64,000 nucleotides of DNA from a virus (IMGVR_UViG_3300045004_000088:128001-192000); one strand, 5' to 3'; counted from the first letter of the stretch, positions 2,178 to 57,868 are shown. The notes: generated by a model not told the origin, from the sequence alone. A program made the numbers and translations.

Positions 2178-2185
2178 GTATATAC
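2178..2185. promoter_or_regulatory. palindromic GTATATAC motif (candidate phage promoter element)
   Basis: Exact palindrome between the divergent minus operon (start 2154) and the plus gene at 2248; recurs elsewhere in the window. Confidence 0.3.
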
Positions 2186-2247
2186 GTTCCCGGCTCATTA
2201 TCTATCAAGGCCGCTTGAGTTTTGGCCCGACTTACTATGGGTAAGTC

Positions 2248-3744
2248 ATGGACCAAATCGAACAAGCAAAAGAAATGATCAAGGCCGGAATCAAGCAGGC
2301 CACTCGCCTCTTTCACGAGGGCAACCTGCCCGGCTGCCTGATGCTGATCGGTCATATCCTCCAAATGGACCCTCACAACGACGACGCCCTACAAATCGCC
2401 GGGCTACTCAAACTGCGGGTCGAAGAAAAAGAAGAGGCGACCCGTCTGCTGACGCTGGCACGTCAGATCAATCCGGCCAACCCGGATCATCACAACAATC
2501 TCGCCGTGGCGTACTCCCGCGCCGGCAAATACGACGAATCGATTGCGTGCGTGCGTGACGCAATCGCTATCGCTCCGGGCAGACCCGTCTTCTGGACCAA
2601 TCTGGGAGTACAACTCAAAGGCAAAGCGGCCGGTAAAACCGGGGCGGAACGCGAATCCTTGCTTAACGAGTCTGAAGCCGCCTTCAACAAGGCGATGGAA
2701 CTCGATCCGAATGCCGCGACCGCGTTCGCAAACCTCGGCAGTCTCTCGGCCGAGCGACACCAAATGGGACGAGCCGCCGAGTTGATGGAAAAAGCTCTGG
2801 AGATCGATCCCAAACTTTCTGGCGTACACGTCGATCTGAGCTACGTCTACTTCCTGACCGGACAGTTCAAAAAGGGATGGCCTCACTACGAACACAGAAT
2901 GACACACTACCCGCAAGCCTCGCGGTGGGAGAAGGTGTTCCCAAGCAGCAAAAGATGGGACGGCCGCACCTCATTAGAAGGTAAAACCGTGGGCATCTTC
3001 TGCGAACAAGGGTGTGGTGACGCAATCCACTTTGCCAGATACATCCCGCTGATCAAGAAAATGGCGGGCGAAGTGTGGTTGTGTTGTCACGATCCTCTGA
3101 AGGGATTGATGTCGCAGTTCTGCGAAACGATCCCGATGTCTCAAAAGCCCCCCTATTACGACGTGTCGATCCCGATCATGTCGTTGCCTTACCTGTTAGG
3201 CGACCCGGAAACGCCCAACGTCTACATCGACACAAAGCCGGCAGACTTGTCCGTCTACGGCGGATTCAAGGTGGGGATCTGTTGGGCGGGGAACCCACAA
3301 CACCCCGGCGACCGATTCCGTTCGGTCCACCTGCGCGAGTTTTCGCCGTTGGCATTTGAAGGGGTGAAACTGTTCTCGCTTCAAAAAGACTACCGGCCCA
3401 GGAAGTACCACGATTCTGAGGATGTCATTGATTTGTGCAGTGACGGCCCGGCCGTGGTGGACCTCTCTCCGATGTTGAACAACTTCGATGACACCGCATC
3501 GTTCGTGGCGGGAATGGATCTGGTAATTTCGGTGGACACGGCGGTGATGCACTTGTCGGCGGCTATGGGTAAAGAGACGTGGGGTCTGATTCCGTACAAC
3601 CCCGATTGGCGATGGGGGTTGTACGGAAGCGATACGCCGCTTTACTCGAACTTGAAGTTGTTCCGCCAGACACAGAAGAACGATTGGCGGTCGGTGATGG
3701 GGGCGGTGGGAGCCAAGCTGCGAGAAAAGTTAAGCCCGCGATGA
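2248..3744 (+). CDS. TPR-repeat protein fused to a GT9-like (heptosyltransferase-family) glycosyltransferase domain
   Basis: 498-aa ORF. N-term TPR-like helices; C-term FCEQGCGDAIHFARYIPLI and GICWAGNPQHP motifs typical of TPR-GT9 proteins. Confidence 0.7.
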   Translation: MDQIEQAKEMIKAGIKQATRLFHEGNLPGCLMLIGHILQMDPHNDDALQIAGLLKLRVEEKEEATRLLTLARQINPANPDHHNNLAVAYSRAGKYDESIACVRDAIAIAPGRPVFWTNLGVQLKGKAAGKTGAERESLLNESEAAFNKAMELDPNAATAFANLGSLSAERHQMGRAAELMEKALEIDPKLSGVHVDLSYVYFLTGQFKKGWPHYEHRMTHYPQASRWEKVFPSSKRWDGRTSLEGKTVGIFCEQGCGDAIHFARYIPLIKKMAGEVWLCCHDPLKGLMSQFCETIPMSQKPPYYDVSIPIMSLPYLLGDPETPNVYIDTKPADLSVYGGFKVGICWAGNPQHPGDRFRSVHLREFSPLAFEGVKLFSLQKDYRPRKYHDSEDVIDLCSDGPAVVDLSPMLNNFDDTASFVAGMDLVISVDTAVMHLSAAMGKETWGLIPYNPDWRWGLYGSDTPLYSNLKLFRQTQKNDWRSVMGAVGAKLREKLSPR

Positions 3745-3754
3745 TCGCGGGCTT
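3732..3754. terminator. palindromic hairpin spanning the stop codon (possible bidirectional terminator)
   Basis: AAGCCCGCGA / TCGCGGGCTT inverted repeat between convergent genes; no clear U-tract. Confidence 0.35.
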
Positions 3755-3759
3755 GGGGG

Positions 3760-4053
3760 TCAGTTCGAGGTCGCGGGAGCAGTGGTCTTCGGCGTGGCCT
3801 TCTTCTTGGCCGCAACCCGGCGTTGTGCGGCCGAGTCGTCGTAGTTGACTTCCAGCCCGTATGCGTCGGCGACCCGCCGCGCCACCGACTTGAGGGCCGA
3901 CAGCGTCTCGAACTTGGTGACGCCTTCCTTGTTGGCGAGCTTCGACTTGGTGGTGTACGGGGCGGTCAAACTGCCCTCGAAGCTCAGGGTTCCGGTCGTC
4001 TTGTCCTCGGAGGCAGTCACCTTGACCTCCAGAGTTGCCTTCTTCTTGCTCAT
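3760..4053 (-). CDS. lysine-rich small protein, possibly DNA-binding
   Basis: Met 12 of ORF 3760..4086 with AGGAAA RBS; Lys-rich termini. Confidence 0.5.
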   Translation of the reverse strand: MSKKKATLEVKVTASEDKTTGTLSFEGSLTAPYTTKSKLANKEGVTKFETLSALKSVARRVADAYGLEVNYDDSAAQRRVAAKKKATPKTTAPATSN

Positions 4054-4090
4054 CTTCGTTTCCTTTCGTGTGCGTGGTACTGCCACTGGG

Positions 4091-4753
4091 TTATCGCGGT
4101 CGAATCGTCATGTTGCTTCGGACAAAGTCTCTATGCTTCTCCCAGTTCTGGCCTTTGGGGTCGGGAACCCCGCAGTCCCTCAACGTCGGTATGACGAACC
4201 GTCTCGTCTTACTGGGTTTGAAGTTTTCAATCGCCGAGCAATACTTTGACTCGAACTTTGAACATTGTATGTCACCGAACAACGTCGTCAAAGACAAAAC
4301 CTTCACAATTGACGAAACTGTTTCCATGACTTCGCTCGACTTCAACCAGTGTCGGTGACCGCCGACGCGGGCGTAATCGATGTACCACATCATGGTGTCG
4401 GGGTCATACGAGAAAAGCGGGTTGGCGTTGCCGACCTCAAAGTGGAGTTCGATCAGATCTTCGATCTCGGAGAAATGCACCTGTTGTTGGGGTAGATACA
4501 ACTCGTAGTAGAGGTAGGCGAACACGGCTCGAAAACTGATTCCGAGGACCGACTTGCGTTTGTAAAACTTGGTCCGCAGGCAGTACGAGCAGAAGAAGTT
4601 GTTGTCCCCGGAAAGGCGTTCGAGGATCTCGGACCCTTTGGACGCAACGAGTTTGCCGCAGAAGTCACAGAGGCGGCACGATTCCTTTGGGAAGTTTGTG
4701 GAAACGGCCGGATGAATGTCGGCTTCGGTACGAAAAACGGGCATAGCAGGCAT
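4091..4753 (-). CDS. hypothetical Cys-rich protein
   Basis: Met 20 of ORF 4091..4810 preceded by GGGAG RBS; CRLCDFC...CSYC cysteine pairs. Confidence 0.55.
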   Translation of the reverse strand: MPAMPVFRTEADIHPAVSTNFPKESCRLCDFCGKLVASKGSEILERLSGDNNFFCSYCLRTKFYKRKSVLGISFRAVFAYLYYELYLPQQQVHFSEIEDLIELHFEVGNANPLFSYDPDTMMWYIDYARVGGHRHWLKSSEVMETVSSIVKVLSLTTLFGDIQCSKFESKYCSAIENFKPSKTRRFVIPTLRDCGVPDPKGQNWEKHRDFVRSNMTIRPR

Positions 4754-4791
4754 ATCTACTCCCAGGCTCCCGATTAACAGAATGAGGACCA

Positions 4792-6523: not shown

Positions 6524-6641
6524 CCGAAGAAGTGCTTTACAACCCGATTCCCGCGACCTATAGTGGGAATCGGGAAATCCTGCAATCGAATTCAAGGGGG
6601 CCAATCGGCCCCGTCGTAGCTTTCCCAACCGGGGATCAGCC

Positions 6642-6893: not shown

Positions 6894-8108
6894 ATGAGTA
6901 GCCTGATCGTTCAAGTGTGCCGAGTCGATAAAGTCGAAGAACATCCCAACGCAGAAAAACTTGCCCTTGCAACAATCAAGGGCTGGAAAACCTGTATTCG
7001 TAAAGACGAAACCGGCACCCAGTTCAAAGAAGGCGATCTCTGCGTCTTCTTCCCGCCCGACGCCGTTCTCCCCAAAGAACTGTCGGATCGGCTCGGCGTC
7101 ACCAAGTACCTCAAGATGTTGGGCAAAGGCACGGACGGCAAGACCCCCGAAGGGGGCCGTGTGGCCGTTTCGCGTCTGCGCGGGCATCCGAGCTACGGGT
7201 TGATCTCCAAACTCGACATCCTGCCAGTCAAGATGAATCCCGACTTCTCAATGGCTTGGAAGCCGGGCGATGACGTGGCGTCCACTCTGGGCATTACCAA
7301 GTGGGAGCCGCCGATGACCTGTACGGACGGGGACGCAGAAAAGCCGCACCCGGCGTTCCACCGCTACTTCACACTCGAAAACTACCGCAACTTCCCCGAC
7401 TTGATTCCCAAAGGCAAGCGGGTCGTTTTCACCGAAAAGATCCACGGGAAGAACTGCCGCGTCGGACTGATCAAGGACACTGGCCCGGACGGTGAAATGG
7501 TCTGGACGTGGATGGCCGGTTCCCACGACGTTCGCCGCAAAGAGTTCGTCACCCGCAAGCGGAAGATCCACGACCGCGAAACGGGCGAAACAAAAACCGA
7601 AGAATACCAAGACAAGTCGCAGTTTTGGCAGGCTCTGGACCGGCCGGGCGTGCGCGACATGATCGACACCATCAGCGGCGGAAAGACGAGCGGTGGCTGC
7701 GTCGATAACGTCGTCGTCTTCGGCGAGATCTTCGGCAGCGGCGTTCAGGACATGGCCTACGGGATGGCGAACGGGAACTGGGACTTCCGCGTGTTCGACA
7801 TCACCGTCAACGGCAAGTACATGAGCTTCGCCGAGAAGATGAACTGGTGCCACATCCACGATGTCAAGATGGTGCCGATCCTGTACGAAGGCCCGTTCAG
7901 CGAGGAAGAGGTCGAGAAGTTCGTGGGCGGCAACACTACCGTCTGCTCATCGGAAGAGAACGGCAAGTTCAAGGGCCGCGAAGGGATCGTGATCACCAGC
8001 GAAATCGAAACTCAAGCCGTCACCCCGGAAAAGGTGTTCGACCGGATGGCACTCAAGGCCATCAACTTCGAGTACCTCGAACGCGCCGGCGGCACGGAAC
8101 ATCACTAA
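6894..8108 (+). CDS. RNA ligase (Rnl2-like nucleotidyltransferase) with N-terminal tRNA-binding OB-fold (Myf/Trbp111-like) domain
   Basis: N-term VEEHPNAEKLALATIKGW matches the tRNA-binding domain. KIHGKN matches Rnl2 motif I (KIHGTN); EGIV motif IV; LKAI motif V. Confidence 0.7.
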   Translation: MSSLIVQVCRVDKVEEHPNAEKLALATIKGWKTCIRKDETGTQFKEGDLCVFFPPDAVLPKELSDRLGVTKYLKMLGKGTDGKTPEGGRVAVSRLRGHPSYGLISKLDILPVKMNPDFSMAWKPGDDVASTLGITKWEPPMTCTDGDAEKPHPAFHRYFTLENYRNFPDLIPKGKRVVFTEKIHGKNCRVGLIKDTGPDGEMVWTWMAGSHDVRRKEFVTRKRKIHDRETGETKTEEYQDKSQFWQALDRPGVRDMIDTISGGKTSGGCVDNVVVFGEIFGSGVQDMAYGMANGNWDFRVFDITVNGKYMSFAEKMNWCHIHDVKMVPILYEGPFSEEEVEKFVGGNTTVCSSEENGKFKGREGIVITSEIETQAVTPEKVFDRMALKAINFEYLERAGGTEHH

Positions 8109-8542
8109 TGTCCCTCAACGATTGGATCGAGTTCGACACGCCACCCTACGTCGCCTATTGCCCTCGATGTGGCGATCCGGGTTTGATTCCAAGTCACCGC
8201 GACTACATGAACGGCACTCTCTGCGAGTCCACGGACGAGTGCCGTCGTTGTGGTTACTACTGCGAATTCTCTTACGGAAGCACGAACGAAGGCGACAATT
8301 CGACCGAGGAGAACGCGCGTATGATCGGCATGCACGACGAACACAACGCCGACGACCCCTTCAAGCTCGAACTGAGCATCACCGCGCTCGTTCAGGCCAC
8401 CCGCCGTATGAAATACGGCGAACACCGCTTCCTGTCGGAACTGGTACGTCAGCGGAAGAAAGATCCCCTCTACAAGTCTTCCACCGAGTTCAAAAACCAC
8501 ACCGACATGCTGGAAGAACTACTCGAAGCCGGATTTTTCTGA
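8108..8542 (+). CDS. Cys-rich zinc-ribbon-like hypothetical protein
   Basis: ATG overlaps the upstream stop (TAATG); CPRCG...CRRCGYYC motifs. Confidence 0.5.
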   Translation: MSLNDWIEFDTPPYVAYCPRCGDPGLIPSHRDYMNGTLCESTDECRRCGYYCEFSYGSTNEGDNSTEENARMIGMHDEHNADDPFKLELSITALVQATRRMKYGEHRFLSELVRQRKKDPLYKSSTEFKNHTDMLEELLEAGFF

Positions 8543-8604
8543 CGCAATTTCGGAGACATCGGCGGCGAGTGCTTTTACCCACTGTCTCGATTCCAAAGGA
8601 AAAC

Positions 8605-8931
8605 ATGAAAACCTACACTGTCGTCGTCGTTGACGAAACCAAACTCGGCATGGTGCAAGAAGAGATCGGCAACATGGCCGGCGTGGGCAACATCACCCAC
8701 GGCAACCTGAACATCCTGATCGTGGAGTCCAGCCAGCCGCTGAATCTGGCGGCGGTTCACGGCGTAGAACGCTATGATGAAATCGGCGCGACGGCCGACT
8801 TCGTTGAAGGTCTTCGCGTTCGCGGCGAGGTCGTGCCGGAAAGCGAGTTGAAAGATCACCCCGCAGACGGCGTCACCCACGTCGAAACCCCCGAAGGGGA
8901 AATCAAACGGGTCGCTTTCTCGGCGGTGTAA
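8605..8931 (+). CDS. hypothetical protein
   Basis: Met 162 of ORF 8122..8931 with AAGGAAA RBS. Confidence 0.5.
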   Translation: MKTYTVVVVDETKLGMVQEEIGNMAGVGNITHGNLNILIVESSQPLNLAAVHGVERYDEIGATADFVEGLRVRGEVVPESELKDHPADGVTHVETPEGEIKRVAFSAV

Positions 8932-9291
8932 ATGAAGCACGAAACGACAATCGAATACTGCGACGGCAACTTGAAGCACCTCGCCGTCGATATTGCCAAC
9001 CTGCAATACGACGCACTGCAAGACTTTTTGCTGTCGCTCGCGGAAAAACTTGAGAAAGACGCCGAGGCCGACCGAACCAGAAATCGGCCTATACTGTCCT
9101 CTCGATTGGAAGCGGCGGCGAGAAACATCGAAGACGCAGCCAGGGCGATTGCTCTGGCTTGGAAAATCTGCAAGCCTCATGTGGAGAACCAAGATGGAAA
9201 GCGATGCTCTGGGCGACCGGATGAAGATGTACGAGCGTGCGGGAACTGCGGAACGGTTCATGCCGCTTCTGCCAGTGATGGCACGAATTGA
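8932..9291 (+). CDS. hypothetical protein (uncertain; 3' end overlaps the Thg1-like gene)
   Basis: 119-aa ORF, ATG overlapping the upstream stop (TAAATG); the last ~100 nt overlap the 9194 start. Confidence 0.3.
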   Translation: MKHETTIEYCDGNLKHLAVDIANLQYDALQDFLLSLAEKLEKDAEADRTRNRPILSSRLEAAARNIEDAARAIALAWKICKPHVENQDGKRCSGRPDEDVRACGNCGTVHAASASDGTN

Positions 9292-10015
9292 CGGTCGCGC
9301 CTTCCACAGCTTCGTTCGCGGTCTGGAACGCCCCTACGATCAGCGCCTGAGTCAGATGATGATCGACACCACCAAGTACCTCGTCAAAGAGACTGCGGCG
9401 GTGATGGGCTACTGCCAGAGCGACGAGATCGGCCTGTGCTGGTACAGCGGCAACCCGGAAACCCAGATCTACTTCGACGGCCGCGTGGCGAAGATGATCA
9501 GTCAACTGGCCGCACAGACCAGCGTGTACTTCTACCGCCTGTGCGTGGACCGCCTGCCACCGGAGTACGCCGCGAAGATGCCGACCTTCGACTGTCGGTG
9601 CTGGACCGTGCCGAACTTCAACGAAGCCGCGAACACCTTCCTCTGGAGGGAGTTGGACGCGAGCAAGAACTCGATCTCGATGGCGGCGCGGAGCGTGTAC
9701 TCGCACAAGGCGTTGGAGAACAAGAACGGGTCGGAGATGCAGGAGATGCTCTGGCAGAAGGGCGTCAACTGGAACGACTACCCCCGGTTCTTCAAGCGGG
9801 GAACCTTCATCCAGCGGCAGATCGTGACCCGGAAGTTCACCACCGACGAACTCGACAAGTTGCCGCCGCAGCACGAGGCCCGGCACAACCCGGAACTGAC
9901 CTACGAGCGGTCGGACTACGTCGAACTGGACATGCCGCCCTTCAACAAGGTGGCGAACCGAGCGGCGGTCATCTTCGAGGGTGCCAAGCCGCAACTCTAC
10001 TCGTGTGCCGGGTGA
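9194..10015 (+). CDS. Thg1-like protein (tRNA-His guanylyltransferase family 3'-5' nucleotidyltransferase)
   Basis: GGAG RBS. VMARIDGRAFHSF matches the Thg1 VVVRLDGRNFHRF motif; GYCQSDE matches the GxSDE metal site. Confidence 0.7.
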   Translation: MESDALGDRMKMYERAGTAERFMPLLPVMARIDGRAFHSFVRGLERPYDQRLSQMMIDTTKYLVKETAAVMGYCQSDEIGLCWYSGNPETQIYFDGRVAKMISQLAAQTSVYFYRLCVDRLPPEYAAKMPTFDCRCWTVPNFNEAANTFLWRELDASKNSISMAARSVYSHKALENKNGSEMQEMLWQKGVNWNDYPRFFKRGTFIQRQIVTRKFTTDELDKLPPQHEARHNPELTYERSDYVELDMPPFNKVANRAAVIFEGAKPQLYSCAG

Positions 10016-10523: not shown

Positions 10524-11009
10524 TTATCTTTTCTTCATGCGTTTTGGACTGTTTGTAATACGAATGATCCTATCAACTTCTGATTCTTCTGGTTGAGACA
10601 TCCGACGCTCAACCTCTGCATCTGCTTGTTTTTGAAGTCGTGTATCTCGCTCATCATCTGTTTCCCAATTATCCATTTCTCCAGGCTTGATAAGCCCAAA
10701 GTGCTTATACGCTGGCCCAAATTTTTCCATTTCCTTTGGCGTACTGTTACGAATTAGTGGGTTGGGATGAGATTTATACTTCTCATAATGCTGCATGGCT
10801 TGTTGCATATATTGGTCATCTGGACTCAATTGTTGGGCTATAGGAGCCTGAACTGCCCCGCCAGCACCTAACATAGTTCCAGCAACAAGTGCTGGAGCAA
10901 GGGCTTTCTTTCCTAACCATCGCCCAGCACTACGCAATTGATGCCCACCCCAAATTTCATTATACATTTGCTGATCTCGTACAGCAAGCCATTCGTGAAA
11001 TGTATTCAT
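10524..11009 (-). CDS. hypothetical protein in a lower-GC inserted block
   Basis: Met 168 of ORF 10524..11510; starts 4 nt after the stop of 11014..11955; local composition is AT-richer. Confidence 0.45.
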   Translation of the reverse strand: MNTFHEWLAVRDQQMYNEIWGGHQLRSAGRWLGKKALAPALVAGTMLGAGGAVQAPIAQQLSPDDQYMQQAMQHYEKYKSHPNPLIRNSTPKEMEKFGPAYKHFGLIKPGEMDNWETDDERDTRLQKQADAEVERRMSQPEESEVDRIIRITNSPKRMKKR

Positions 11010-11013: not shown

Positions 11014-11955
11014 CTATTTAGTAGATGGACTTGATTTTTGCAAAAACTGACCTCTCTCATCACGCTCCATAACCCTCTTCTTCTGACTTTCAGAGAGTTT
11101 CTTACGGCTCTCGTCACTCCACACCTTGCCCAAATGGGCCGTGCGGCGTCCGTTGTGCTTCTCGGCAAGAGCCTGACACTCATCAACCTCAAGCACCTGG
11201 GTCGGGATGAATGGATTGACCGAGTTGATCTCGGCACGGCACAGTTTACAGCCGTTGTCGTTTCGGCTGGTGTCGAAGTACAGGACGATCTCCTTGAGAT
11301 GTGGCCGCAGCAGTACCGCCTTGTTCTCACCTTCTGCTTGCACCACGTCGCCACAAAGGGTCTGGATAGTTGTTGCCGCTTCCAGAAGATGTTGCTTGGA
11401 CTGCCGGTACTCAGAAACCAGGGAATGCAGACCAACCTCCAGTTGTTCGATCTCCACCTGTTTGTCCTTGATAAACTGTTTGATGTCAGGATCGTCGCCC
11501 ATGTCAGCAAACTTCAAGATCAACTTCTGCTTCTCGGCTTTCAAAGAAACGACCTTACCACGCACAGACTGGTGAACTTCATCAAAGATTTCTTGGTACG
11601 TCAATTCCAAATAGTCGGCGTCATTGTCTGGAGTCGCCATGTACTTCCACGCACGCTTCTTGAAGTTCTTGGCCTTCTCATCCTCCGTATCGCCAGGGAG
11701 GTTAGCGAAGATGAACTTATACATCTTCTGAGCGACTTCACCGCAAGCGGCGATGGCATTGTCTGTCCGCTTGTTTGTTGGGTCCAGCATCTCTCCGATC
11801 AGTTCGTTGACGATGCCGTTGGAGGACTTGACCTTTTCACAGAGCGTAAGGTAGCTCTTTTCGAGCCAACGCAGCCAGTTGTCAATGATTTCGTGGATCA
11901 CGTCGATCTTGACTGCCCCACACTTCTCACAGCGATAGTTTTTCGACGGCTTCAT
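11014..11955 (-). CDS. NUMOD3-motif protein, putative homing-endonuclease-like or DNA-binding
   Basis: 313-aa ORF; C-term GRRTAHLGKVWSDESRKKLSESQKKR resembles NUMOD3; N-term CEKCG; lies inside the UDG-disrupting insert. Confidence 0.5.
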   Translation of the reverse strand: MKPSKNYRCEKCGAVKIDVIHEIIDNWLRWLEKSYLTLCEKVKSSNGIVNELIGEMLDPTNKRTDNAIAACGEVAQKMYKFIFANLPGDTEDEKAKNFKKRAWKYMATPDNDADYLELTYQEIFDEVHQSVRGKVVSLKAEKQKLILKFADMGDDPDIKQFIKDKQVEIEQLEVGLHSLVSEYRQSKQHLLEAATTIQTLCGDVVQAEGENKAVLLRPHLKEIVLYFDTSRNDNGCKLCRAEINSVNPFIPTQVLEVDECQALAEKHNGRRTAHLGKVWSDESRKKLSESQKKRVMERDERGQFLQKSSPSTK

Positions 11956-12043: not shown

Positions 12044-12409
12044 ATGTTCAAAAAATGGCTCGTCTTACGCGAAAACGATGAATCAGCCTTCATTCAGGCC
12101 ATCAAAGCGAACCCGACAGACCGCACGCTCTGGCTGGTCTACGCCGACTGGCTAGATGAACACGACCGCCCCGAAGAGGCGGCGGCAATCCGCAAGGCTA
12201 AAGCCGCCCCTCCTCCGAAAAGCCGACAAGTCAACAGCATGGGCGAACGCGAGTACCAGAGCTTCGGTACTTGGCGGAAAGCGATCATGACCGAGTTCCC
12301 CGGAGCCACATTTGACGGCAACAAGGACATTGCACAAGCATTGTTCTACGGTACGGGTGTCGGCGAATGGGACGGGGAACGCGGGGTCATCTACGCCAGG
12401 AACAGTTAA
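12044..12409 (+). CDS. TIGR02996-like (repeat-companion domain) protein
   Basis: ANPTDRTLWLVYADWLDEHDRPEEAAAIR matches a motif that is expanded in Planctomycetes and Myxococcota. Confidence 0.55.
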   Translation: MFKKWLVLRENDESAFIQAIKANPTDRTLWLVYADWLDEHDRPEEAAAIRKAKAAPPPKSRQVNSMGEREYQSFGTWRKAIMTEFPGATFDGNKDIAQALFYGTGVGEWDGERGVIYARNS

Positions 12410-12864
12410 GACTTGCCTTTGCCGTAGTGTCTAGCAATGGCGCGAGCTACGTCCGGCCAGATCCTGCGAACACCGGGGTGCAGGTTCTTTGACGTGATGT
12501 GTGACAGCGGCACCCATTCGTAATCGCTGCTCTCGTCACTCAACTTGACGTTGTACGGCTTCTCAATGGTCATCAGATACGTCTTGAAGACGTGGTGGCC
12601 GTCCTGATCGGTGAAGTCATCGATCCGCGTCATCGACGGCAGATTGCCACTCTCTTCTTTGGCCTCACGGTGGGCCGCGCCGATGTCCGATTCGCCCGAC
12701 TTCACTTTGCCGCCAGGAATGGCCCAGGTGTTGGGTTGGTCGCACGGCGGCTTCCGCTTCAGCAAAAGAACCACATCACCGTCCGTCATGAACAGACCGG
12801 CTCCACGTTTGCCGTACCGCTTCTTGCCGCCGGCACCGATTCGCGAAAACCCGGATTTACTCAC
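12406..12864 (-). CDS. Nudix hydrolase
   Basis: Nudix box GGKVKSGESDIGAAHREAKEESG (GX5EX7REUXEEXGU). Confidence 0.7.
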   Translation of the reverse strand: MSKSGFSRIGAGGKKRYGKRGAGLFMTDGDVVLLLKRKPPCDQPNTWAIPGGKVKSGESDIGAAHREAKEESGNLPSMTRIDDFTDQDGHHVFKTYLMTIEKPYNVKLSDESSDYEWVPLSHITSKNLHPGVRRIWPDVARAIARHYGKGKS

Positions 12865-13436: not shown

Positions 13437-13437
13437 G

Positions 13438-14107: not shown

Positions 14108-15010
14108 TTATCCCATGACGATGGGCAACTGCCCATCACCGAATCTGGTGATCAGTCTCTCTTCCCATTCCTTCTTTTCCTCGCGGCCCTCTTGCAACAG
14201 AGTGTCGCCGTCGAGTTGTACGCCGCCGTTCGGCCCAGGCGGGTTTTTGATCTTGCTCCTGATTCGGCCGAGCATGATCTTGGCGAAACACAACGCCCCT
14301 TCTTTCATGGCGTGAGCCACACGGCCCCAGTCCTTGTGCTTCTGAATGTAGTGGACGGCCACCTTGTGTACCCGGTACGGGATCGGGTAGATCTTGATGT
14401 GTTGGAAGTCGCCCAACCACTCCCACCCGCCCAGGTTAGAAGCGATTCGGGAGTACATTTGTTCGTACTGCTTGTACAGAACCCACTCGCCCATCCTGCC
14501 CCAGATCGGCTGGATCGGGTCGATCATGCCGCCCTGAATGCTGGCATAGGCACCGCCCGGATAGAAATACTCGACCGGCAGCGAACCGCCCAGGTCGGAC
14601 GCGGCGAACGCGAACGAGCCAGTTTCCTTGTACCGCACCTCTCGGATGTAACCGATTTCCGGCGGAAGTTTGTAAACGCTTTGGCCCGGCGTTGTGTTAA
14701 ATACGAACCACTCGAAGTATTCGCGTGGGGCGTACTCCTCGAATACTGCGAGTGCTTCGTCCACCGCGATGTCGAGTTGTTGATCGTTGAGTTCGATCAC
14801 GACTTCCGGCGCACCTAACATGGCGAGAACGTAGTCTTTGATCTGGTCTATTACCTTTGATCGGTCGCGTCTCGGACCCAGTTGTTTGATGTCCAACGGA
14901 TCGGCTACACCGAGGCCGTTGCCGCCGCCACAGCCACTTGCACAAACACCGCCGCCCTGCGTGTAAGAAGGGCGGGGCAAGACGATTTGATTGCTACCAC
15001 AATTTCCCAT
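14108..15010 (-). CDS. hypothetical protein (MGNCGS, Gly/Cys-rich N-terminus); possible virion component
   Basis: 300-aa ORF at the head of a minus-strand cluster; function not recognisable. Confidence 0.55.
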   Translation of the reverse strand: MGNCGSNQIVLPRPSYTQGGGVCASGCGGGNGLGVADPLDIKQLGPRRDRSKVIDQIKDYVLAMLGAPEVVIELNDQQLDIAVDEALAVFEEYAPREYFEWFVFNTTPGQSVYKLPPEIGYIREVRYKETGSFAFAASDLGGSLPVEYFYPGGAYASIQGGMIDPIQPIWGRMGEWVLYKQYEQMYSRIASNLGGWEWLGDFQHIKIYPIPYRVHKVAVHYIQKHKDWGRVAHAMKEGALCFAKIMLGRIRSKIKNPPGPNGGVQLDGDTLLQEGREEKKEWEERLITRFGDGQLPIVMG

Positions 15011-15017
15011 TGTGAGG

Positions 15018-15025
15018 TATATAGA
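15018..15025. promoter_or_regulatory. GTATATAG motif in a divergent intergenic region
   Basis: Lies between the minus gene start 15010 and the plus gene start 15056; same element as at 27424 and 18700. Confidence 0.3.
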
Positions 15026-15055: not shown

Positions 15056-17755
15056 ATGAGCAAGACTTTCTCAAGCTTCTTCAACGAACTGTACTACACT
15101 AAGGACCACGCTTATAGACGGCTCCGTCTGTTCAGCGAGATGGCGAAGCCCTTCCACATCTACAAGAAACCCATCGTGTTCGACAACACCGACGCGAAGT
15201 TCCTGTACCAGTTCCCTCGTAAGTTCTGGCTCCAGGCGATGGTGATGAGGTATCGCACCGACCTGTTCAAAGCGCTCAAGGGTCGTCACGACAACCGTCA
15301 AAAGCTGTTCGACCGGAAATACGAAGAGGTTCTGCCAGAGATTCAGAAGCGGTTCGCCAAGAAGAAAAACGGCGACAAGCTCGCTCGTCGGCAGGCAATT
15401 TTGGTGGCCGAAGAGTACGCCGCCAAGCACGACATGGGCAAGCTCGAATTCCCGAAAGAGAAGACGTACACGTTCAAGCCCGCCGGCAAAGCCAAGCCGG
15501 TCCAAATCAACGCCAAGACGTACATGGACCAACTGGTTCACAAACTAGAGGGCGAGTACGGCGACCCGAACGGTTTCGACTTGGAACACCCGCGTCGTGG
15601 TCACGACGGCCGTCACATGTCAACTCGCGGCTTCAACTTCCCCACCGTTGACACGATCCGCGAGATGATGAGCGAATGGTTGAACTACATCGGTCACCAC
15701 ATGCTCGGAGAACTGCCCGGCGAAGGCGACGGCATTCACTGGCGGGCCGACCACGCGGGCGGTTCTGGGAAGACCCGGTTCGATGACACGTTCACCGTAA
15801 ACCGCATCAAAGAGGAGAGGTTCAAATACTGGTACGACCGGCTCCCGACCGAAGAGAACCCACTCCGACTCTGGCAGGAAGTCATGCCGGAAGACAAGAA
15901 GGGTGCCAGCACCCAAGAGATCAGGAACAACAACAGCAAACGAGAAAAGCTCGCCCGCGCTTTGGCCGAACGTGACGTTCGTCAAATGGCAGCGGACGGC
16001 AAGATACGCACACCGCCGACTCCGCAACACCCGGAAGGGCGGGTCGTTGACGTTGACGACCAGGGCGACATCAAACACCCGTCACTGCACATCCCTCACA
16101 AGAAGGTGAGCATCCGATATTTGAACTCGGACGGCGAAGAAGAGACGGCTGAAGAAGAGGTGCCGTACCTGCTTCCGGGCGGATTTTTGCGCAAGCTGTC
16201 GCCGGCCGAGAGCGACAGCATGGACGACGGAATCAAGACCGGCAAGCACTGGAACCCCGACAGCAAGCGGTTCGAGTCCCAGTATGTCTCGGTAACCGAT
16301 CACCCGGCCGCAGGCATGCAGGGTACGGATCACATCCGCGCCGGCGCTCTCAACCCGAACAACAACTCGACGGGCCGCAAGTTCCTCGATCCGAGCGATC
16401 CGAGCTACGACGAGCGTCTGGACCGGCTGAACGAAGAGATCGGTCTGAGGAACGACGGACAGTCGGCAGAAATCTACGATGCTATCGAAGCGGCTTTGAA
16501 GGCCGGCGGCACCGGCGGCATGGGAAACCACGAACGCCAAGTCCTGATGATGATGAAAAGGGATCTTCACAACTTGGCCTACATGATGTTGGTCGAGAAC
16601 TTGGACGAATCGGACAGCCGAATCTTCAACCCTGAGTGGCGGAAAAGGAAGATCCGCGACATGGTTGCGAAGTACGGCCAGCAAGACTGGGGTCGTGGCA
16701 GCCGGCGTCTTCGCGGATCAAAAGAAACTGACAGTCTGGATTCGGAAGTCGAAGAGGACGGTGAAGAAATGACACTAGCCGACAAGCTCCGCCAGCAGTT
16801 GACCAAAGCGAAGCAACAGGCTCTGGCTCTGAGAGGCAGCGGCAAGTGCAAGGTGGGGTCGGGGGAAAAGAGGTTGAACACGGGGGAGTGCCAGTTCGAG
16901 TACGACCTCAGACAACTTCACGCCATGCTCGACTCGGCCGACACCGAGGCCGCGAGTGCCGACGCCGACATCAAACGGGGTGAAGACGCGATTGACGGCG
17001 ACACGATGGGCGCGGGGGTTCAGGGCAAGCTCGACGCGACCTTCCGTGCTTTCACGGTGTTGAAGGCGCAGTTCGTCAACATGGGGCAGCAAGAGAAAGA
17101 GGCAGAAGAGTCGGCGATGGCGGCTTTGAAGGAGATCCTTCAGGACGACCCGCCCGCCAAGAGCATCATTTCTCGCGTGAGATACCGCATCAACAAGTTG
17201 GCCTCGAAAGCCGGCGAAGATGTGGAGAAGGCGAAGCTACAGCCAGTTGACCACGCTGCGGGTGCGGAACAAAACGAAGAGGAGATCCGAGACGCGGCGA
17301 CGAAACTGGGGGTGGTGGAAAAGACGCTCACGGGATTCCTTGAAGCCGGCAAGATCGAGCAGTATCTGTCGCGTGTCGAAACGCCGCACTTTGACGAAAC
17401 CATCAAGCAACTGATGGAGAAGTACCCGACTTTGAAGCCGCGTTATGACATGCTGTTGAAGCAGATAGCCGACGTGAAGAAGCAGAGGGAAATGGTGATC
17501 GGGAAGGCTCCGAACCTCCCGCAGACCAGAGAATCGAATCGGTTTAACTTGATTAGCTTGCTTCAAGACAACCGGCTCGACTTGATCCCGTTCAACACCC
17601 AGTTCAGAAGAATGGTCGGCGAGGGCAAGATCTTGTTGAAAAAAGTTCAAGAGATGCTGGAAGAGTTGAAGTGGCGGCAGGGAACGCTTTTGGCCCACCC
17701 CGATGACAAGGAAGCTATTGAGGCTTTCGAGGAGATCATCGGAGGCAAGAAGTGA
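15056..17755 (+). CDS. large hypothetical protein (~899 aa) with a coiled-coil-rich C-terminus; possible virion or assembly protein
   Basis: Met 59 of ORF 14882..17755 with RBS-like AGGAAGG upstream; no recognisable catalytic motifs. Confidence 0.6.
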   Translation: MSKTFSSFFNELYYTKDHAYRRLRLFSEMAKPFHIYKKPIVFDNTDAKFLYQFPRKFWLQAMVMRYRTDLFKALKGRHDNRQKLFDRKYEEVLPEIQKRFAKKKNGDKLARRQAILVAEEYAAKHDMGKLEFPKEKTYTFKPAGKAKPVQINAKTYMDQLVHKLEGEYGDPNGFDLEHPRRGHDGRHMSTRGFNFPTVDTIREMMSEWLNYIGHHMLGELPGEGDGIHWRADHAGGSGKTRFDDTFTVNRIKEERFKYWYDRLPTEENPLRLWQEVMPEDKKGASTQEIRNNNSKREKLARALAERDVRQMAADGKIRTPPTPQHPEGRVVDVDDQGDIKHPSLHIPHKKVSIRYLNSDGEEETAEEEVPYLLPGGFLRKLSPAESDSMDDGIKTGKHWNPDSKRFESQYVSVTDHPAAGMQGTDHIRAGALNPNNNSTGRKFLDPSDPSYDERLDRLNEEIGLRNDGQSAEIYDAIEAALKAGGTGGMGNHERQVLMMMKRDLHNLAYMMLVENLDESDSRIFNPEWRKRKIRDMVAKYGQQDWGRGSRRLRGSKETDSLDSEVEEDGEEMTLADKLRQQLTKAKQQALALRGSGKCKVGSGEKRLNTGECQFEYDLRQLHAMLDSADTEAASADADIKRGEDAIDGDTMGAGVQGKLDATFRAFTVLKAQFVNMGQQEKEAEESAMAALKEILQDDPPAKSIISRVRYRINKLASKAGEDVEKAKLQPVDHAAGAEQNEEEIRDAATKLGVVEKTLTGFLEAGKIEQYLSRVETPHFDETIKQLMEKYPTLKPRYDMLLKQIADVKKQREMVIGKAPNLPQTRESNRFNLISLLQDNRLDLIPFNTQFRRMVGEGKILLKKVQEMLEELKWRQGTLLAHPDDKEAIEAFEEIIGGKK

Positions 17756-18671: not shown

Positions 18672-18699
18672 GGAAGTCCTCTTTATTTTTAGGCACGCA

Positions 18700-18707
18700 C
18701 TATATAC
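18700..18707. promoter_or_regulatory. GTATATAG motif (minus orientation) in a divergent intergenic region
   Basis: About 30 nt upstream of the minus gene start 18671 and 47 nt upstream of the plus gene 18754. Confidence 0.3.
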
Positions 18708-43072: not shown

Positions 43073-43089
43073 TCCGGCCTATACTGACC

Positions 43090-43120
43090 TCGTGTAACTC
43101 ACGAGGTCAGTTTCTAGGAG
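43090..43120 (+). terminator. hairpin terminator
   Basis: CTGACCTCGTG-taact-CACGAGGTCAG followed by TTTCT. Confidence 0.5.
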
Positions 43121-43126: not shown

Positions 43127-43624
43127 ATGAATCAGCAGAACGAAGAAACCCCCGCACAGAAAGCGGCCGAAGCGGTCGGGTGTGGCATGATCGCGGCGGC
43201 GGTCGTAGCCCTCATCATCGTCATGTTCATGGCGCAAATCGATTCGGCCAAGAAAACGGCTACGGACTGGCTGGAACGGTCGAAAACGCCGGCCGGGTAC
43301 ATCACGGGCAAAGTTACCAACGTCAAAACGTGGCAAGAAGAAGACTTCAAACACAAAGAAGGCAACCTGACCCTGACGCTCCCCATCAGGGATCGTTGCG
43401 AGGTCACGTTCAGCGACGGCCGGACACGCAAGTTCGTCGGCATGCCGAAAGATACGGTTCCGACCGACAAGGAAATGACGTTCATCTGGGGCGGGTTTGA
43501 CATCCTGCTCGAAGTGGTGGACGCCGAGGAGTTCAAGAAGCGACCCCACAAACCCGGCGACCCGCCGCCACCTCCGAACAACATCGGCGCGGTAGTGGCA
43601 CCGCCACCGGAGAAAAAGACATGA
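43127..43624 (+). CDS. membrane-anchored protein with Pro-rich C-terminus
   Basis: 165 aa; one TM helix (GCGMIAAAVVALIIVMFMA); GGAGACGG RBS. Confidence 0.5.
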   Translation: MNQQNEETPAQKAAEAVGCGMIAAAVVALIIVMFMAQIDSAKKTATDWLERSKTPAGYITGKVTNVKTWQEEDFKHKEGNLTLTLPIRDRCEVTFSDGRTRKFVGMPKDTVPTDKEMTFIWGGFDILLEVVDAEEFKKRPHKPGDPPPPPNNIGAVVAPPPEKKT

Positions 43625-48431: not shown

Positions 48432-50087
48432 TCACTCTTCCGAGTCTTTCTGTTCCACGCCCCGGTGGTTGAGATGGTTCAGTGCCGCTTCCACCAACCC
48501 GGCGAACAGCGGAGCAGGACTCATCAGTCGGCTTTTGAACTCAGGGTGAGCTTGTGTGCCGATGTAGAACGGGTGGATCGCACGATCCAACTCCATTACC
48601 TCCACCAGACCCGATTGTGGGTTTCTGCCGGTGACTTTGAAGCCTTTTGCCGACATCGCCTCTATGTACGCGGGATTCACCTCATATCGGTGTCGGTGCC
48701 TCTCACTCACCAACTTTTTTCTGTACAACGTGTACGCCAGAGAATCCTTCACCAACTCGCAGTCGTATGCACCGAGCCTCATGTTCGCCGACTTGCCGGT
48801 CAACTCCGCTTGCCCCGCGACAAAGTGTACGACCGGGTTGGGAGTATTAGAGTCGAACTCAATTGAGTTCGACTCTAAACCGAGAGCGTGGCGAGTGAAT
48901 TCGATCACCGCACACTGAAGTCCCAGACAGATGCCGAGGAACGGCAGCTTGTGTTCCCTCGCCCATCTCGCGCCGCGAATCTTGCCCTCGACGCCGCGAC
49001 AGTCGAAGCCACCGGGGACGATAAGACCCTGTAAACCCTCGAAAAACCTGCCGTGGTTTCGCTTCGAGTTCTCCACGTCCTCTGCCGAGATCCACCTGAT
49101 CTTGACCTTCGCGTTGACGGCCGCAGCCGAATGAACCAACGCCTCCTTCAAAGACAAATAAGCCTCGTCCGCGTTCTCGATGTACTTGGCGAGAACGCCG
49201 ATCTCCACGGTCGGCAGATCGGGGGAAACCATCTTCTCGACCAATTCTTTGTGCTTCTTGATTCCGATACCGTTGCGGCCGAAACGGAACCGATCAACGA
49301 TCAGGTCGTCCACGTCACGGTTGTAGAACTCCAACGGAACGTGATAAACGGTCTGAACGTCGGGGGCAGTGAAAACGGCCTTCCGGCGAACGCCGGTCAA
49401 GCTCGCGATCTTGTCGAGAAGTTTAGTCGGAAGCTCGCGGTCGCTCGGCGTGCGACACAGGAGAATGTCGGGAGTGATGCCGAACGATTGAAGGGTCTTG
49501 ATGGACTGTTGAAGGGGCTTGGTCTTAAACTCTTTGATCGTCGGAATCCAAAGAATCGGCGCGACGTGGACGATGATCACGTCCTCGAAGTTGTCCTGCT
49601 TGAATTGACGAACGGCTTCGAGGAACGGCCCGCTCTCGATGTCGCCGACCGTTCCTCCGATCTCAACGATCACACAGTCGTTGTTTTCGCCGAGTGCCTT
49701 GAGTCTAGATTGGATTTTGTCGGTGACGTGGGGAATGCACTGAACGGTCTGGCCGAGGTACTTGCCCCCTTTTTGTTCGGCGAGAAGTTCGTCGTAGACC
49801 TGACCGCTGGTGAGGATGTTCTTGCTAGAAACCTCGACACCCATGATGCGTTCGTAGGTGCCGAGATCGAGGTCTGTTTCGGAGCCGTCATCACACAAGA
49901 AAACCTCGCCGTGTTCTCGCGGCGATAGGATTCCGGCGTTGACGTTCAGATAAGGGTCGAATTTGACTGGCGTGACTTTCAAATCACGCATCTTCAGTAG
50001 TAATCCCAAGCTCGCGGTACTGACGCCTTTGCCCGACCCCGAATAAACGCCGCCCACCACGATGATGTATTTGCTTTGCATGCTCAC
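48432..50087 (-). CDS. pyrG: CTP synthase
   Basis: N-term KYIIVVGGVYSGSGKGVSTASLG; C-term class-I GATase domain (GICLGLQ); 551 aa. Confidence 0.8.
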   Translation of the reverse strand: MSMQSKYIIVVGGVYSGSGKGVSTASLGLLLKMRDLKVTPVKFDPYLNVNAGILSPREHGEVFLCDDGSETDLDLGTYERIMGVEVSSKNILTSGQVYDELLAEQKGGKYLGQTVQCIPHVTDKIQSRLKALGENNDCVIVEIGGTVGDIESGPFLEAVRQFKQDNFEDVIIVHVAPILWIPTIKEFKTKPLQQSIKTLQSFGITPDILLCRTPSDRELPTKLLDKIASLTGVRRKAVFTAPDVQTVYHVPLEFYNRDVDDLIVDRFRFGRNGIGIKKHKELVEKMVSPDLPTVEIGVLAKYIENADEAYLSLKEALVHSAAAVNAKVKIRWISAEDVENSKRNHGRFFEGLQGLIVPGGFDCRGVEGKIRGARWAREHKLPFLGICLGLQCAVIEFTRHALGLESNSIEFDSNTPNPVVHFVAGQAELTGKSANMRLGAYDCELVKDSLAYTLYRKKLVSERHRHRYEVNPAYIEAMSAKGFKVTGRNPQSGLVEVMELDRAIHPFYIGTQAHPEFKSRLMSPAPLFAGLVEAALNHLNHRGVEQKDSEE

Positions 50088-50100
50088 ATTGTATGTAAGC

Positions 50101-55844: not shown

Positions 55845-56423
55845 TCAATTTGAAGTAGCGAGCGCCACGGCGATCAGGGGGTCGCCGCCCGGTGATGAAT
55901 AGTAGTCGTCAACAAGGTCCGCATCGTACTGGTGGGCGAACCCCGCCGGCAATACGCTGGCGAACCAGGGGAAGAACTCCACGAAGTAGCCGACGTAGTT
56001 CGCGTCGAAGTGCGGCGGGGACGAACCTGTGCCGAACGACATCTCGATCACGCGGGCCAGCATGTCCAAAAGGTCGGACGGAGCGGCCCAGAAGTCCTCG
56101 TGAACGAGACGACTGCCGTGGAACGGGCGTCGGACACATGAAGACTCGCGGCCGAAGGCGACGACCTTGTCTGCGGCGAGTTCAAAAATCTCCTCCACGG
56201 ATTTTTGAACTCGGACGTTCGGCCCGGCGAACAAGAAGACGCCGTCCCTTTTGGCGAGGGCCGCGATCAATCCCGCCTGTGTGCCGTCGTACAACTCGAA
56301 GCCGTCGCCGGCCGTGTTGAAAACAAGAACGGCCGTGCCGAGCTTTTTGACCGCCGCGAGCCAATCCTTCCCGTGTGTGTCCCAAGATTCGGGGGTGAAA
56401 GCCCCCACGATGTACTTCTTCAA
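55845..56423 (-). CDS. hypothetical protein between the SbcC- and Mre11-like genes
   Basis: 192-aa ORF; 4-nt overlap with the upstream gene. Confidence 0.5.
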   Translation of the reverse strand: MKKYIVGAFTPESWDTHGKDWLAAVKKLGTAVLVFNTAGDGFELYDGTQAGLIAALAKRDGVFLFAGPNVRVQKSVEEIFELAADKVVAFGRESSCVRRPFHGSRLVHEDFWAAPSDLLDMLARVIEMSFGTGSSPPHFDANYVGYFVEFFPWFASVLPAGFAHQYDADLVDDYYSSPGGDPLIAVALATSN

Positions 56424-57487
56424 GCTGCCTCTTCGTGCTGGATAATGCGTTTGCCGAAATCGATCAGACGCGGCTTCGGCAAGCCGTTGCAGCCGACATC
56501 ATCGACATAGCGTTCTAGCATTTTGTCTTCGGCTTGCAGGATCGCGAGTGCGTCCTGAATTACATGAGTTTCCTCTTCCGTCTTCTTGCGGAACTGGCGC
56601 ACATTTACCGTCGCGGCCCCCTTGCTCGACAGAAGCTCTCGCCGAATCTTCGCCACGTCAATGGCCGACAGATCCTCCGTCATCAGCGTAACGAACGCCC
56701 CCTTCAAATCGTACAGATTGAGTTGGTCCGGCTTCAAGTAGTAGTGCCTCGGACTGAACTCGTTGAGGATGTACTCCCGGTTCCCGCTCTCGCAGTCGAG
56801 CAGGATCAGGTGTTTGTCTTGGAACGCCTCGCCGAAGCTCAACTGGAGCGGGCTGCCGATGTACTCGACCTTGTCGGCCAGCACTTGGGTGGCGTGGTAG
56901 TGGCCGAGGAACGTCCGCTCGTACCGCTCGAACAGGTTGGCCGAGACTGGCACCATTTCGCCGTCGTGTTCGATGACCACGTCGGAGACGGTGCCGGAAC
57001 TGTTCAGCTTCGCGCCGTCAATGGCGATGTGGCCGAGGCAGTATTTCGCCGGCTCGTCGTAATCGCCGAGCATTTCCACGGCACTGACCGGATCGTGGGT
57101 GAAAGGGATGAAATCCCACTTCGCGCCGCCGATGGTCCGTCGCTCGACAGAACTGATGACCGTGACGCCGGGCAACGCTTGGAACGGGTAGACTCCGCTG
57201 ATCGAGGTGTCGTCGTTGAACCACAGGTCGTGGTTTCCGAGCAGCAGCCAGAGGCGGAACTTGCCGTTGCAGTATTTCTTGAGGATCTCGTAGACGCGGG
57301 TGTACGTCAGTACGTCGATCTTGGATCGGTCGTGTAGCAAGTCGCCGCCGAACAGGATGTCTTCGACGTGACGGGCCTTCGCGGTCTGGAACACCCATTC
57401 GAGTGCCTTCAGACAGTCTTCGAGTCTTTCCGCACGGCGTTTGTGGGGGTGGACGTGACAGTCGGCGAAGAGTAAAACATGGCTCAT
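56420..57487 (-). CDS. Mre11/SbcD-like nuclease (T4 gp47-like)
   Basis: Calcineurin-like phosphoesterase motifs DCHVHPH, GGDLLHD, GNHD; Met 27 with AGGAGTGG RBS. Confidence 0.75.
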   Translation of the reverse strand: MSHVLLFADCHVHPHKRRAERLEDCLKALEWVFQTAKARHVEDILFGGDLLHDRSKIDVLTYTRVYEILKKYCNGKFRLWLLLGNHDLWFNDDTSISGVYPFQALPGVTVISSVERRTIGGAKWDFIPFTHDPVSAVEMLGDYDEPAKYCLGHIAIDGAKLNSSGTVSDVVIEHDGEMVPVSANLFERYERTFLGHYHATQVLADKVEYIGSPLQLSFGEAFQDKHLILLDCESGNREYILNEFSPRHYYLKPDQLNLYDLKGAFVTLMTEDLSAIDVAKIRRELLSSKGAATVNVRQFRKKTEEETHVIQDALAILQAEDKMLERYVDDVGCNGLPKPRLIDFGKRIIQHEEAA

Positions 57488-57561
57488 CACCACTCCTGAA
57501 ATGAAAGAAGACGCACAGTCAACCCGTGCGCCTTCTAGTCTTAATGAAAAAACCCCTTCAG

Positions 57562-57855
57562 TCAAGACGAGGTTTTATTTTGTTGTTGTTGGCCGTGGCT
57601 CAGGTACTTCTCCAAAACGTCCCAGACGTTCGTGGACTTCAGCTTGGTCGGTGCTTGGTTGCCAGCACCCGGTGCGCCACCGCCCGGCCCGCCCATAGGA
57701 GGAGGTCCACCCGGAGGCAAACCGCCGCCACCCATAGGTGGAGGACCGCCCATCGGAGGACCACCCGGCGGTGCGCCACCGCCCGGAGGACCGCCCGCCG
57801 GTGGTGGCGGTGCCGCGTCTTCGATAAGATTCAAGAACTGGGTGAATGTCTTCAT
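57562..57855 (-). CDS. Gly/Pro-rich low-complexity small protein (uncertain; the opposite strand also carries an ORF)
   Basis: Met 66 of ORF 57562..58050. GTATATAC lies 6 nt upstream. A hairpin plus U-tract terminator overlaps the stop. Confidence 0.3.
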   Translation of the reverse strand: MKTFTQFLNLIEDAAPPPPAGGPPGGGAPPGGPPMGGPPPMGGGGLPPGGPPPMGGPGGGAPGAGNQAPTKLKSTNVWDVLEKYLSHGQQQQNKTSS

Positions 57856-57860
57856 CGCAG

Positions 57861-57868
57861 GTATATAC
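57861..57868. promoter_or_regulatory. palindromic GTATATAC motif
   Basis: Identical to the flank GGTATATACG at 2178. Sits between the minus start 57855 and the plus ORF 57895. Confidence 0.3.

Follow-up and report, generated by a model that had tools for sequence, protein, structure and literature searches.

In bacteriophage T4, the late promoter is a single 8-bp element, TATAAATA, at positions -13 to -6, with no -35 box, and related phages such as Aeromonas phage Aeh1 vary at positions -13 and -12 (PMC2988020). The T4 protein gp55 is a homologue of sigma region 2 (PMC7892883). Genes 55 and 33 lie far apart in T4, and the question has been raised why they are always encoded apart (PMC2988020); jumbo phages of 'group 2' carry minimal sigma factors together with gp33 (PMC7824862). 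Divergent transcription can be driven by symmetric -10 elements, the commonest distance between the two starts being 18 bp (bioRxiv 10.1101/2020.01.31.928960), and in mycobacteria leaderless mRNAs have the -10 box directly upstream of the start codon (PMC4633059). Here we describe a recurrent motif, GTATATA, in a stretch of 64 kb (about 56% GC; the window) from the virus IMGVR_UViG_3300045004_000088, positions 128001-192000, the source of which is a huge myophage. From its sequence properties the motif is very probably a promoter element. With moderate confidence, we read it as a T4-late-type, -35-less, -10-type promoter class that would drive the virion module and the operon of a gp55-family sigma factor. 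We found no description of the motif, or of late genes without a leader in phages of this kind, in the literature searched, subscription journals lying outside the coverage of the search.

The window was analysed together with 18.9 kb of held-out flanking sequence of the same genome, so that about 83 kb was examined, approximately 17% of the genome; the sigma protein of the window is matched exactly on a contig of 476 kb, and the genome is therefore at least 476 kb long. Intergenic DNA, as delimited by a self-trained gene call, amounts to 8.6 kb (13-14% of the sequence), and all k-mers were compared. GTATATA is found at seven loci of the window (2178, 15017, 18700, 19173, 22580, 27424 and 57861), and all seven TATATA hexamers in the window have a G on one flank. 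There are 10 strand-hits, against 0.30 expected, and none of the dinucleotide shuffles reached 10. Measured against order-1 expectations for this same intergenic DNA, GTATATA ranks first among the 7-mers by over-representation (8 against 0.19 expected, p=3e-11). The shuffles and the intergenic-composition model together rule out an artefact of chance or composition. Six of the seven loci are intergenic, the exception being 22580; the enrichment in intergenic over coding DNA, proposed as a check by an earlier reading of the window (the sequence-only reading), is thus present at window scale. The tetramer TATA shows the same tendency, with 32 of its 41 occurrences intergenic, and one-mismatch variants of the motif number 22 in intergenic and 12 in coding DNA. 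The window consensus is GTATATA[G/C/A], and the core shared by the clade is R-TA[T/A/G]ATA.

Most sites listed by the sequence-only reading are where it placed them. GTATATAC is present at 2178 and 57861, within the palindrome GGTATATACG starting at 2177 and 57860, and GTATATAA is present at 19173; a further GTATATAC, at 22580, had been overlooked. Two of the three GTATATAG sites, 18700 (-) and 27424 (-), stand as given, and the one assigned to 15018 was off by one and starts at 15017 (+). The proposed GTATATCT variant near tRNA-Phe (about 61536) has to be withdrawn, as it belongs to the 3' acceptor arm of a tRNA-like match, full-length but below threshold, at 61473-61543 (+) (26.4 bits against a gathering threshold of 29, E=0.002). 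A second full-length match below threshold lies at 61289-61371 (+) (26.7 bits). Both are located just upstream of tRNA-Phe, neither is called by ARAGORN, and they probably represent tRNAs that are degenerate or unusual.

The sites are concentrated in two respects. Divergent gaps hold five of the six intergenic sites and only 26% of the intergenic bases (P=0.005), in agreement with the earlier description of the sites as intergenic and often divergent; two of these gaps are merely 39 and 45 nt long. The virion/sigma block, with functions assigned from PHROGs, covers 13.5 of the 83 kb and holds five of eight sites (P=0.004), the eighth being that of the held-out sequence. The held-out 18.9 kb contains a single TATATA, which has the same architecture: it occupies a gap between divergent genes, with the ATG of a NUDIX gene 5 nt away.

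The virion genes recognized by PHROGs form a T4-like block comprising a head-tail adaptor (14108-15010 (-)), a head closure protein (20494-21027), a sheath stabilizer (21738-22721 (+)), the tail sheath (22963-25338), two tail-tube genes (25367-25987 and 26067-26597) and a baseplate hub (30657-31793). The first site of this region, GTATATAG at 15017-15024, is in the 45-nt divergent gap, with the head-tail adaptor gene starting, at an ATG, 7 nt from its hexamer on one side and an 899-aa gene (15056-17755 (+)) 32 nt from it on the other. The GTATATAG at 18700-18707 (-) occupies the divergent gap 18672-18753 and is separated from the genes 18075-18671 (-) and 18754-19152 (+) by 29 and 47 nt, respectively, each with a Shine-Dalgarno (SD) sequence. 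At 19173-19180 (+), GTATATAA is followed by ggcATG, and a 431-aa gene (19184-20479 (+)) without SD starts 4 nt from the hexamer. The intragenic GTATATAC at 22580-22587 (+) lies in the 3' end of the sheath-stabilizer gene, 149 nt upstream of a 74-aa gene that is followed by the tail-sheath gene. The 27424 site belongs to a fully conserved 16-nt island, GTATATAGATACCCCG (27416-27431 (-)), 61 nt upstream of the sigma gene. The two remaining sites are palindromic copies of GTATATAC. That at 2178-2185 is in the divergent gap 2155-2247, 24 nt from a 62-aa open reading frame (ORF; 1966-2154 (-)) with the SD sequence GGAGGG, an ORF also called by the JGI and Logan pipelines, and 63 nt from a TPR/glycosyltransferase gene (2248-3744 (+)). 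That at 57861-57868, in the 39-nt gap 57856-57894, is 6 nt from the ATG of the ORF 57562-57855 (-), which points toward the SbcD/SbcC genes; the ORF 57895-58269 (+) starts 27 nt away and has an SD. The proximity of some sites to start codons lacking an SD, as previously proposed, is therefore confirmed, the distances being 4, 6 and 7 nt at 19173 (+), 57861 (-) and 15017 (-).

Four variants of the hexamer are also placed before genes. TAAATA at 11015-11020 (-) is 5 nt upstream of the ATG of a 161-aa gene (10524-11009 (-)); this gene was missed by the self-trained caller and called by JGI, and its TAAATA-N5-ATG (N5 denoting a spacing of 5 nt) directly follows the stop of the gene 11014-11955 (-). 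GTAGATA at 4753-4759 (-) lies 8 nt upstream of the ATG of the gene 4091-4744 (-), and GTAAATA at 32069-32075 (+), a weak candidate, 92 nt upstream of the gene 32168-32884 (+). TAGATA at 21726-21731 (+), 6 nt before the ATG at 21738, is conserved in the relatives L155 and L082; it is ambiguous, in that the preceding GGAGGA could serve as SD for a TTG start at 21732.

Conservation was studied in relatives of the sigma gene, of which there are 164 in IMG/VR; their loci were taken with 10-kb flanks, and synteny is kept from 17.8 to 33.5 kb. The relatives used in the motif comparison range from 32 to 56% GC. In the closest, L155 (86% identity of the sigma protein, 78.6% DNA identity), 20.5 kb contains exactly four TATATA hexamers, and all four are orthologous to sites of the window (18700, 19173, 22580 and 27424). 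Alignments show the hexamer footprints as conserved islands within diverged or indel-bearing spacers. GTATATAGATACCCCG is invariant beside approximately 25 nt of diverged sequence, and AAGGTATATAARGCATG, the footprint at 19173, is kept in L155 and L082 despite an indel of 27 nt, the protein downstream being 34% identical in L082. Sigma orthologues at 41-56% GC share a conserved ..CAG-TA[T/A/G]ATA-GATACC.. approximately 55-65 nt before the start codon, and, because the upstream gene is co-directional in many of these loci, the orientation of the element toward the sigma gene is fixed. In LR756511 (41% GC), the only GenBank relative of the sigma factor, the motif is unrecognizable upstream of the sigma gene. 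Single-protein scans of IMG/VR gave no relatives of the 899-aa and 431-aa proteins, and megablast found no near relatives of the window among GenBank phages.

The intragenic site at 22580 provides, in our view, the cleanest evidence of selection at the DNA level, as judged from codon usage. A conserved Thr-Tyr-Ile-Pro is encoded there by ACG-TAT-ATA-CCC, although TAT accounts for 14% of the Tyr codons and ATA for 2.2% of the Ile codons, and TATATA is used in one of the 36 Tyr-Ile pairs of the window. TAT-ATA is nevertheless kept in 8 of 13 relatives (L082, L084, L085, L096, L097, L102, L128 and L132). L083 has the ordinary TAC-ATC at this position, but its 74-aa gene contains a GTATATAG, located approximately 75 nt before the sheath gene; a site at this second position is also present in L084-L086 and L106. 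The pattern is suggestive of promoter turnover upstream of the sheath gene.

The distance between hexamer and start codon is conserved as well. Among 20 non-redundant loci with orthologues of the gene 18075-18671 (27-73% identity), TATATA-N4-ATG is found in 10 and TAAATA-N5/7 in three more, and for the orthologues of the head-closure gene 20494-21027, about a dozen loci have TA[T/A]ATA-N3-6-ATG. In the relatives, the divergent neighbour 18754-19152 has the same hexamer with an SD-containing leader of 18-47 nt. The histogram of spacings established from 678 kb of non-redundant loci, with ORFs of at least 60 aa, has a sharp maximum. In the GC-rich loci, TATATA precedes eight ORF starts at N4, against 0-2 at every other spacing, and 23 instances occur in these loci; in the AT-rich loci, the counts are six for TATATA at N4, eight for TATATA at N5 and 12 for TAAATA at N5. 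Control hexamers have a flat distribution of spacings to ATG.

The presumed partner of the motif is a minimal sigma factor of 175 aa, encoded at 26836-27363 (-), which according to Pfam has sigma region 2 only and no region 4. Its family has more than 1000 members in the protein collection, on contigs of up to 673 kb, and the C-termini vary across the family. PHROG 234, which T4 gp55 matches at 3e-69, is matched by the sigma factor of the window at 5.6e-6 and is the top family for six of seven other sigma factors of the clade (1e-7 to 5e-9). Sequence searches of the PDB returned only weak region-2 matches. The protein is gp55-like in architecture and probably a remote homologue of gp55.

Eight nucleotides after the stop codon of the sigma gene begins a 77-aa gene (26594-26827 (-)), which is syntenic in all relatives, with 45 non-redundant orthologues. 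Its product has a fold like the helix-turn-helix of sigma region 4 and no PHROG or Pfam assignment; an identification with T4 gp33 (Pfam Trans_coact) was discarded, as there is no sequence similarity. The arrangement is suggestive, though no more than that, of a split sigma factor made from adjacent genes, both behind the GTATATAG site.

Several features bring the motif close to the T4 late promoter. Both are single, short, A/T-rich elements of the -10 region without a -35 box, and both precede T4-like virion genes (here sheath, tube and adaptor), with a phage sigma factor that has domain 2 only and belongs to the PHROG of gp55. With the last A of the hexamer placed at -6, GTATATA agrees with the T4 element at -11, -10, -8, -7 and -6, and differs at -12 and at -9, which is T, A or G in the clade. 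The TAAATA variant of the relatives is identical over the whole of -11 to -6, and the two positions upstream are variable. The window consensus of this GC-rich phage is GTATATA, not the 8-mer TATAAATA, so that five to six of the last six positions agree. Unlike that of T4, the hexamer is here a perfect palindrome, prefers divergent gaps, also precedes the sigma gene and often abuts start codons at N4-5, which would imply leaderless mRNAs. To our knowledge, these are not a feature of T4 late genes. A further difference is that a sigma-4-like 77-aa gene here adjoins the sigma gene.

The other two systems are similar in part. As in the symmetric promoters of Warman et al., one symmetric -10-type element is placed between divergent genes, and starts 5-7 nt from the hexamer on either side would be approximately 17-19 bp apart, compared with the published 18 bp. 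The published elements are, however, two overlapping, offset sigma-70 -10 hexamers, whereas here there is one palindromic hexamer without a T at -7. In the mycobacterial leaderless genes, too, a -10-type hexamer precedes the ATG at a short, fixed distance and there is no SD; the hexamer here is of a different class, and the spacing of N4-5 found here contrasts with N6 for the boxes of sigma-70 type in the window.

On this evidence, GTATATA would form the core of a phage-specific, -35-less, -10-type promoter, with the core R-TA[T/A/G]ATA throughout the clade, that drives the T4-like virion module and the operon of the phage's own domain-2-only sigma factor. The hexamer would correspond to T4 late positions -11 to -6, keeping the terminal ATA and lacking the T at -7. 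TATATA being fully palindromic, a single hexamer in a short divergent gap probably fires both ways; one of the two start codons is often 4-7 nt downstream, so that a leaderless mRNA would result, and the mRNA of the other direction would have a leader of 18-63 nt that includes an SD. The unusual features of this proposal, bidirectional use and leaderless late mRNAs, are probable from the arrangement of sites and genes. The position of the sigma operon behind the same motif suggests positive feedback. That the motif is read by this gp55-family sigma factor seems to us, by a small measure, the more plausible assignment of a reader.

The main rival to a phage-specific class is recognition by the host's primary sigma factor, with the sites being -10-only promoters of sigma-70 type and the phage sigma serving another promoter class. 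TATATA agrees with TATAAT at five of six positions, and the held-out site GGTATATAAT contains a perfect TATAAT. Sigma-70-type factors need a T at -7, and it is here that the agreement fails: the last base of the hexamer is A at all sites, including the TAAATA and TAGATA variants of the clade. Neither a -35 box nor a TG extension is conserved at the motif sites, where conservation is confined to the hexamer and the bases flanking it directly and is lost over the 25 nt upstream. One TTG, placed 12 nt before the hexamer (ATTTGAG-N9-GTATATA; 27438-27447 (-) and 22564-22573 (+)) is shared by the sigma promoters of the window, L155 and L082 and by the 22580 site; its confinement to these rules out a general -35-like box. 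A scan of 14-28 kb with the sigma-70 consensus gave four sites (5.0 ± 2.0 expected), none at the motif. When every site was read on both strands as a sigma-70 -10 box, TAnnnT was found only at 27424, as TATACT on the opposite strand, and this reading was dismissed because the co-directional upstream genes of the relatives fix the orientation toward the sigma gene. The window does contain promoter candidates of another class, in which -7 is a T and the -35 box is good, such as TTTACA-N17-TATAGT at 6536-6564 (+) and TTTACA-N16-TATAGT at 38598-38625 (+). Boxes of this type also abut start codons without an SD, namely TATAGT-N6-ATG at 38527-38541 (-), before a 126-aa gene, and TACAAT-N6-ATG at 50079-50093 (-), before the CTP synthase gene; leaderless starts are thus not specific to GTATATA, and the N6 boxes suggest a second, host-type class of leaderless genes. 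Two hexamer classes coexist, at N6 and at N4-5, although the numbers in the window are small. The different spacing and the concentration of the sites in the virion module also argue against the host factor, and we regard its involvement as unlikely.

The symmetry of the motif recalls an operator, that is, a site at which a dimeric regulator encoded by the phage would control neighbouring promoters. Three of the seven sites are perfect palindromes of 8-10 bp (GGTATATACC-like), and the sites are in divergent regulatory gaps. Only 6-7 bp are conserved, however, the flanks are mostly asymmetric (as in GTATATAG and GTATATAA) and the third position varies in the relatives. The tight N4-5 spacing suits an element that defines a start site, and the gaps of 39 and 45 nt have no other promoter-like element to regulate. 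An operator is accordingly improbable: the palindromy noted by the sequence-only reading is real, and it is better explained by a symmetric -10-type hexamer serving divergent genes. Still less credible, and in our estimate highly improbable, is an A/U-rich enhancer of SD-independent translation initiation acting in the RNA. It would account for the many instances 4-7 nt from an ATG without SD, but not for the equally conserved ones 24-150 nt from a start with its own SD (the sigma gene, 18700, 2178 and 22580); the same hexamer, moreover, serves both strands in divergent gaps, and its sequence is too specific for a generic enhancer of this kind.

Against the reading as a T4-late-type class served by the phage sigma factor stand several observations. 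The initiation of RNA polymerase at the motif, its recognition by the sigma factor, late expression and leaderless mRNAs are all inferred from sequence. Of the late-type phage promoter that had been proposed, a conserved, oriented, -35-less element concentrated in the virion module is what stands; the reader and the timing belong to the inferred part. A direct comparison of the sigma family with T4 gp55 by hhalign aligned residues 41-127 at a non-significant E=0.11, and the fold, being equally near to cellular sigma domain 2 and to gp55, does not by itself separate the two; the earlier assignment of 26836-27363 to a gp55-like minimal sigma is thus upheld by the domain-2-only architecture and PHROG 234, and not by this profile comparison. 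No homologue of gp33 or gp45 was found in the window of this genome of at least 476 kb, and other sigma factors may be encoded outside the 64 kb and the 19 kb of flanks examined. The motif precedes the sigma gene itself, whose first transcription must do without that sigma factor, a point that also favours the host factor. The first sigma molecules would then need another route, such as read-through or weak recognition by the host enzyme, or another factor reads the motif; the arrangement means either auto-amplification or a different reader. In the T4 geometry, transcription starts 6 nt after the element, equivalent to N5 before a leaderless ATG; the peaks here are at N4-N5, and at N4 the A of the ATG is one nucleotide nearer than predicted. 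Sites 2178 and 57861 have no recognizable virion gene adjacent, and the coding scores of both ORFs beside 57861 are neutral or negative, an independent pipeline having called neither. Finally, no exact GTATATA is found upstream of the baseplate genes at 30.6-33.5 kb, the weak GTAAATA at 32069 excepted. What carries the reading nevertheless is observed: the enrichment, the conservation at the DNA level, the spacing, the gene context, and the family and fold of the sigma factor.

Other possible signals were noted in the window. The two TTTACA-TATAGT promoters (6536-6564 and 38598-38625) have the spacer word ACAACCCGATTC in common and may represent a repeated early-promoter cassette; at 6545-6575 the spacer and -10 box form a 9-bp inverted repeat (ccgattccc/gggaatcgg). 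The 11-mer GGCCTATACTG, which contains TATACT, occurs at 9085-9100 (+), 99 nt upstream of a Thg1-like gene (9194-10015), and at 43075-43090 (+), 42 nt upstream of the gene 43127-43624, and could be another promoter sub-class. Between the tail-tube genes, a symmetric A-tract/hairpin/T-tract at 26003-26032 resembles a terminator readable on both strands, and a strong terminator-like hairpin with T8 follows the gene 21034-21522 at 21625-21644, just upstream of the sheath-stabilizer gene. The 97-aa product of the ORF 57562-57855 (-) has ordinary N- and C-terminal segments, separated by a long low-complexity core rich in Pro and Gly (..PPPPAGGPPGGGAPPGGPPMGGPPPMGGGG..).

The genes of nucleotide and DNA metabolism in the window include the large and small subunits of ribonucleotide reductase, CTP synthase and SbcC/SbcD (gp46/47-like), and those of RNA repair an RNA ligase and a Thg1-like protein; there are six tRNAs. 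Genes for RNA and translation functions are dense (window 6894-10015, 12406-12789 and 36140-36598; L156 11667-12011, 18669-19112 and 20374-20432). They include the RNA ligase, the Thg1-like tRNA-His guanylyltransferase, several NUDIX hydrolases, a protein with a tRNA-binding domain, a His-tRNA-synthetase-like fragment and a ribosome recycling factor, and this set fits the translation-related repertoire described for huge phages. A host could not be assigned from CTP synthase, for which the best genome match, a metagenome-assembled genome of Bacteroidota at 45% identity, is too weak. The majority of the other genes of the phage carry an SD. Systems of Bacteroidota typically do not use the SD.

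Huge phages, of 200-700 kb, are known almost solely from metagenomes, and their expression programmes are essentially unmapped. A signature that can be scanned for and is tied to a sigma family of more than 1000 members would allow late and virion operons, as well as true start codons, to be annotated throughout the clade. This matters because a large number of genes seem to lack an SD at their start, and standard gene callers overlook such genes or place their starts wrongly. We put forward only tentatively, and with some doubt, the wider proposal that, in a large clade of huge phages, the late programme depends on a split, auto-amplifying sigma factor acting on a bidirectional palindromic promoter, with routine leaderless virion mRNAs; we know of no description of this combination of split sigma factor, palindromic bidirectional promoter and leaderless mRNAs for late transcription of the T4 type. 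That sigma-2-like and sigma-4-like genes adjoin each other here is relevant to the question why T4 gp55 and gp33 are encoded apart (PMC2988020). If the reading as a T4-late-type class is true, the T4 paradigm of a -35-less late promoter would reach a distant lineage, with palindromic bidirectional use and leaderless late mRNAs in addition.

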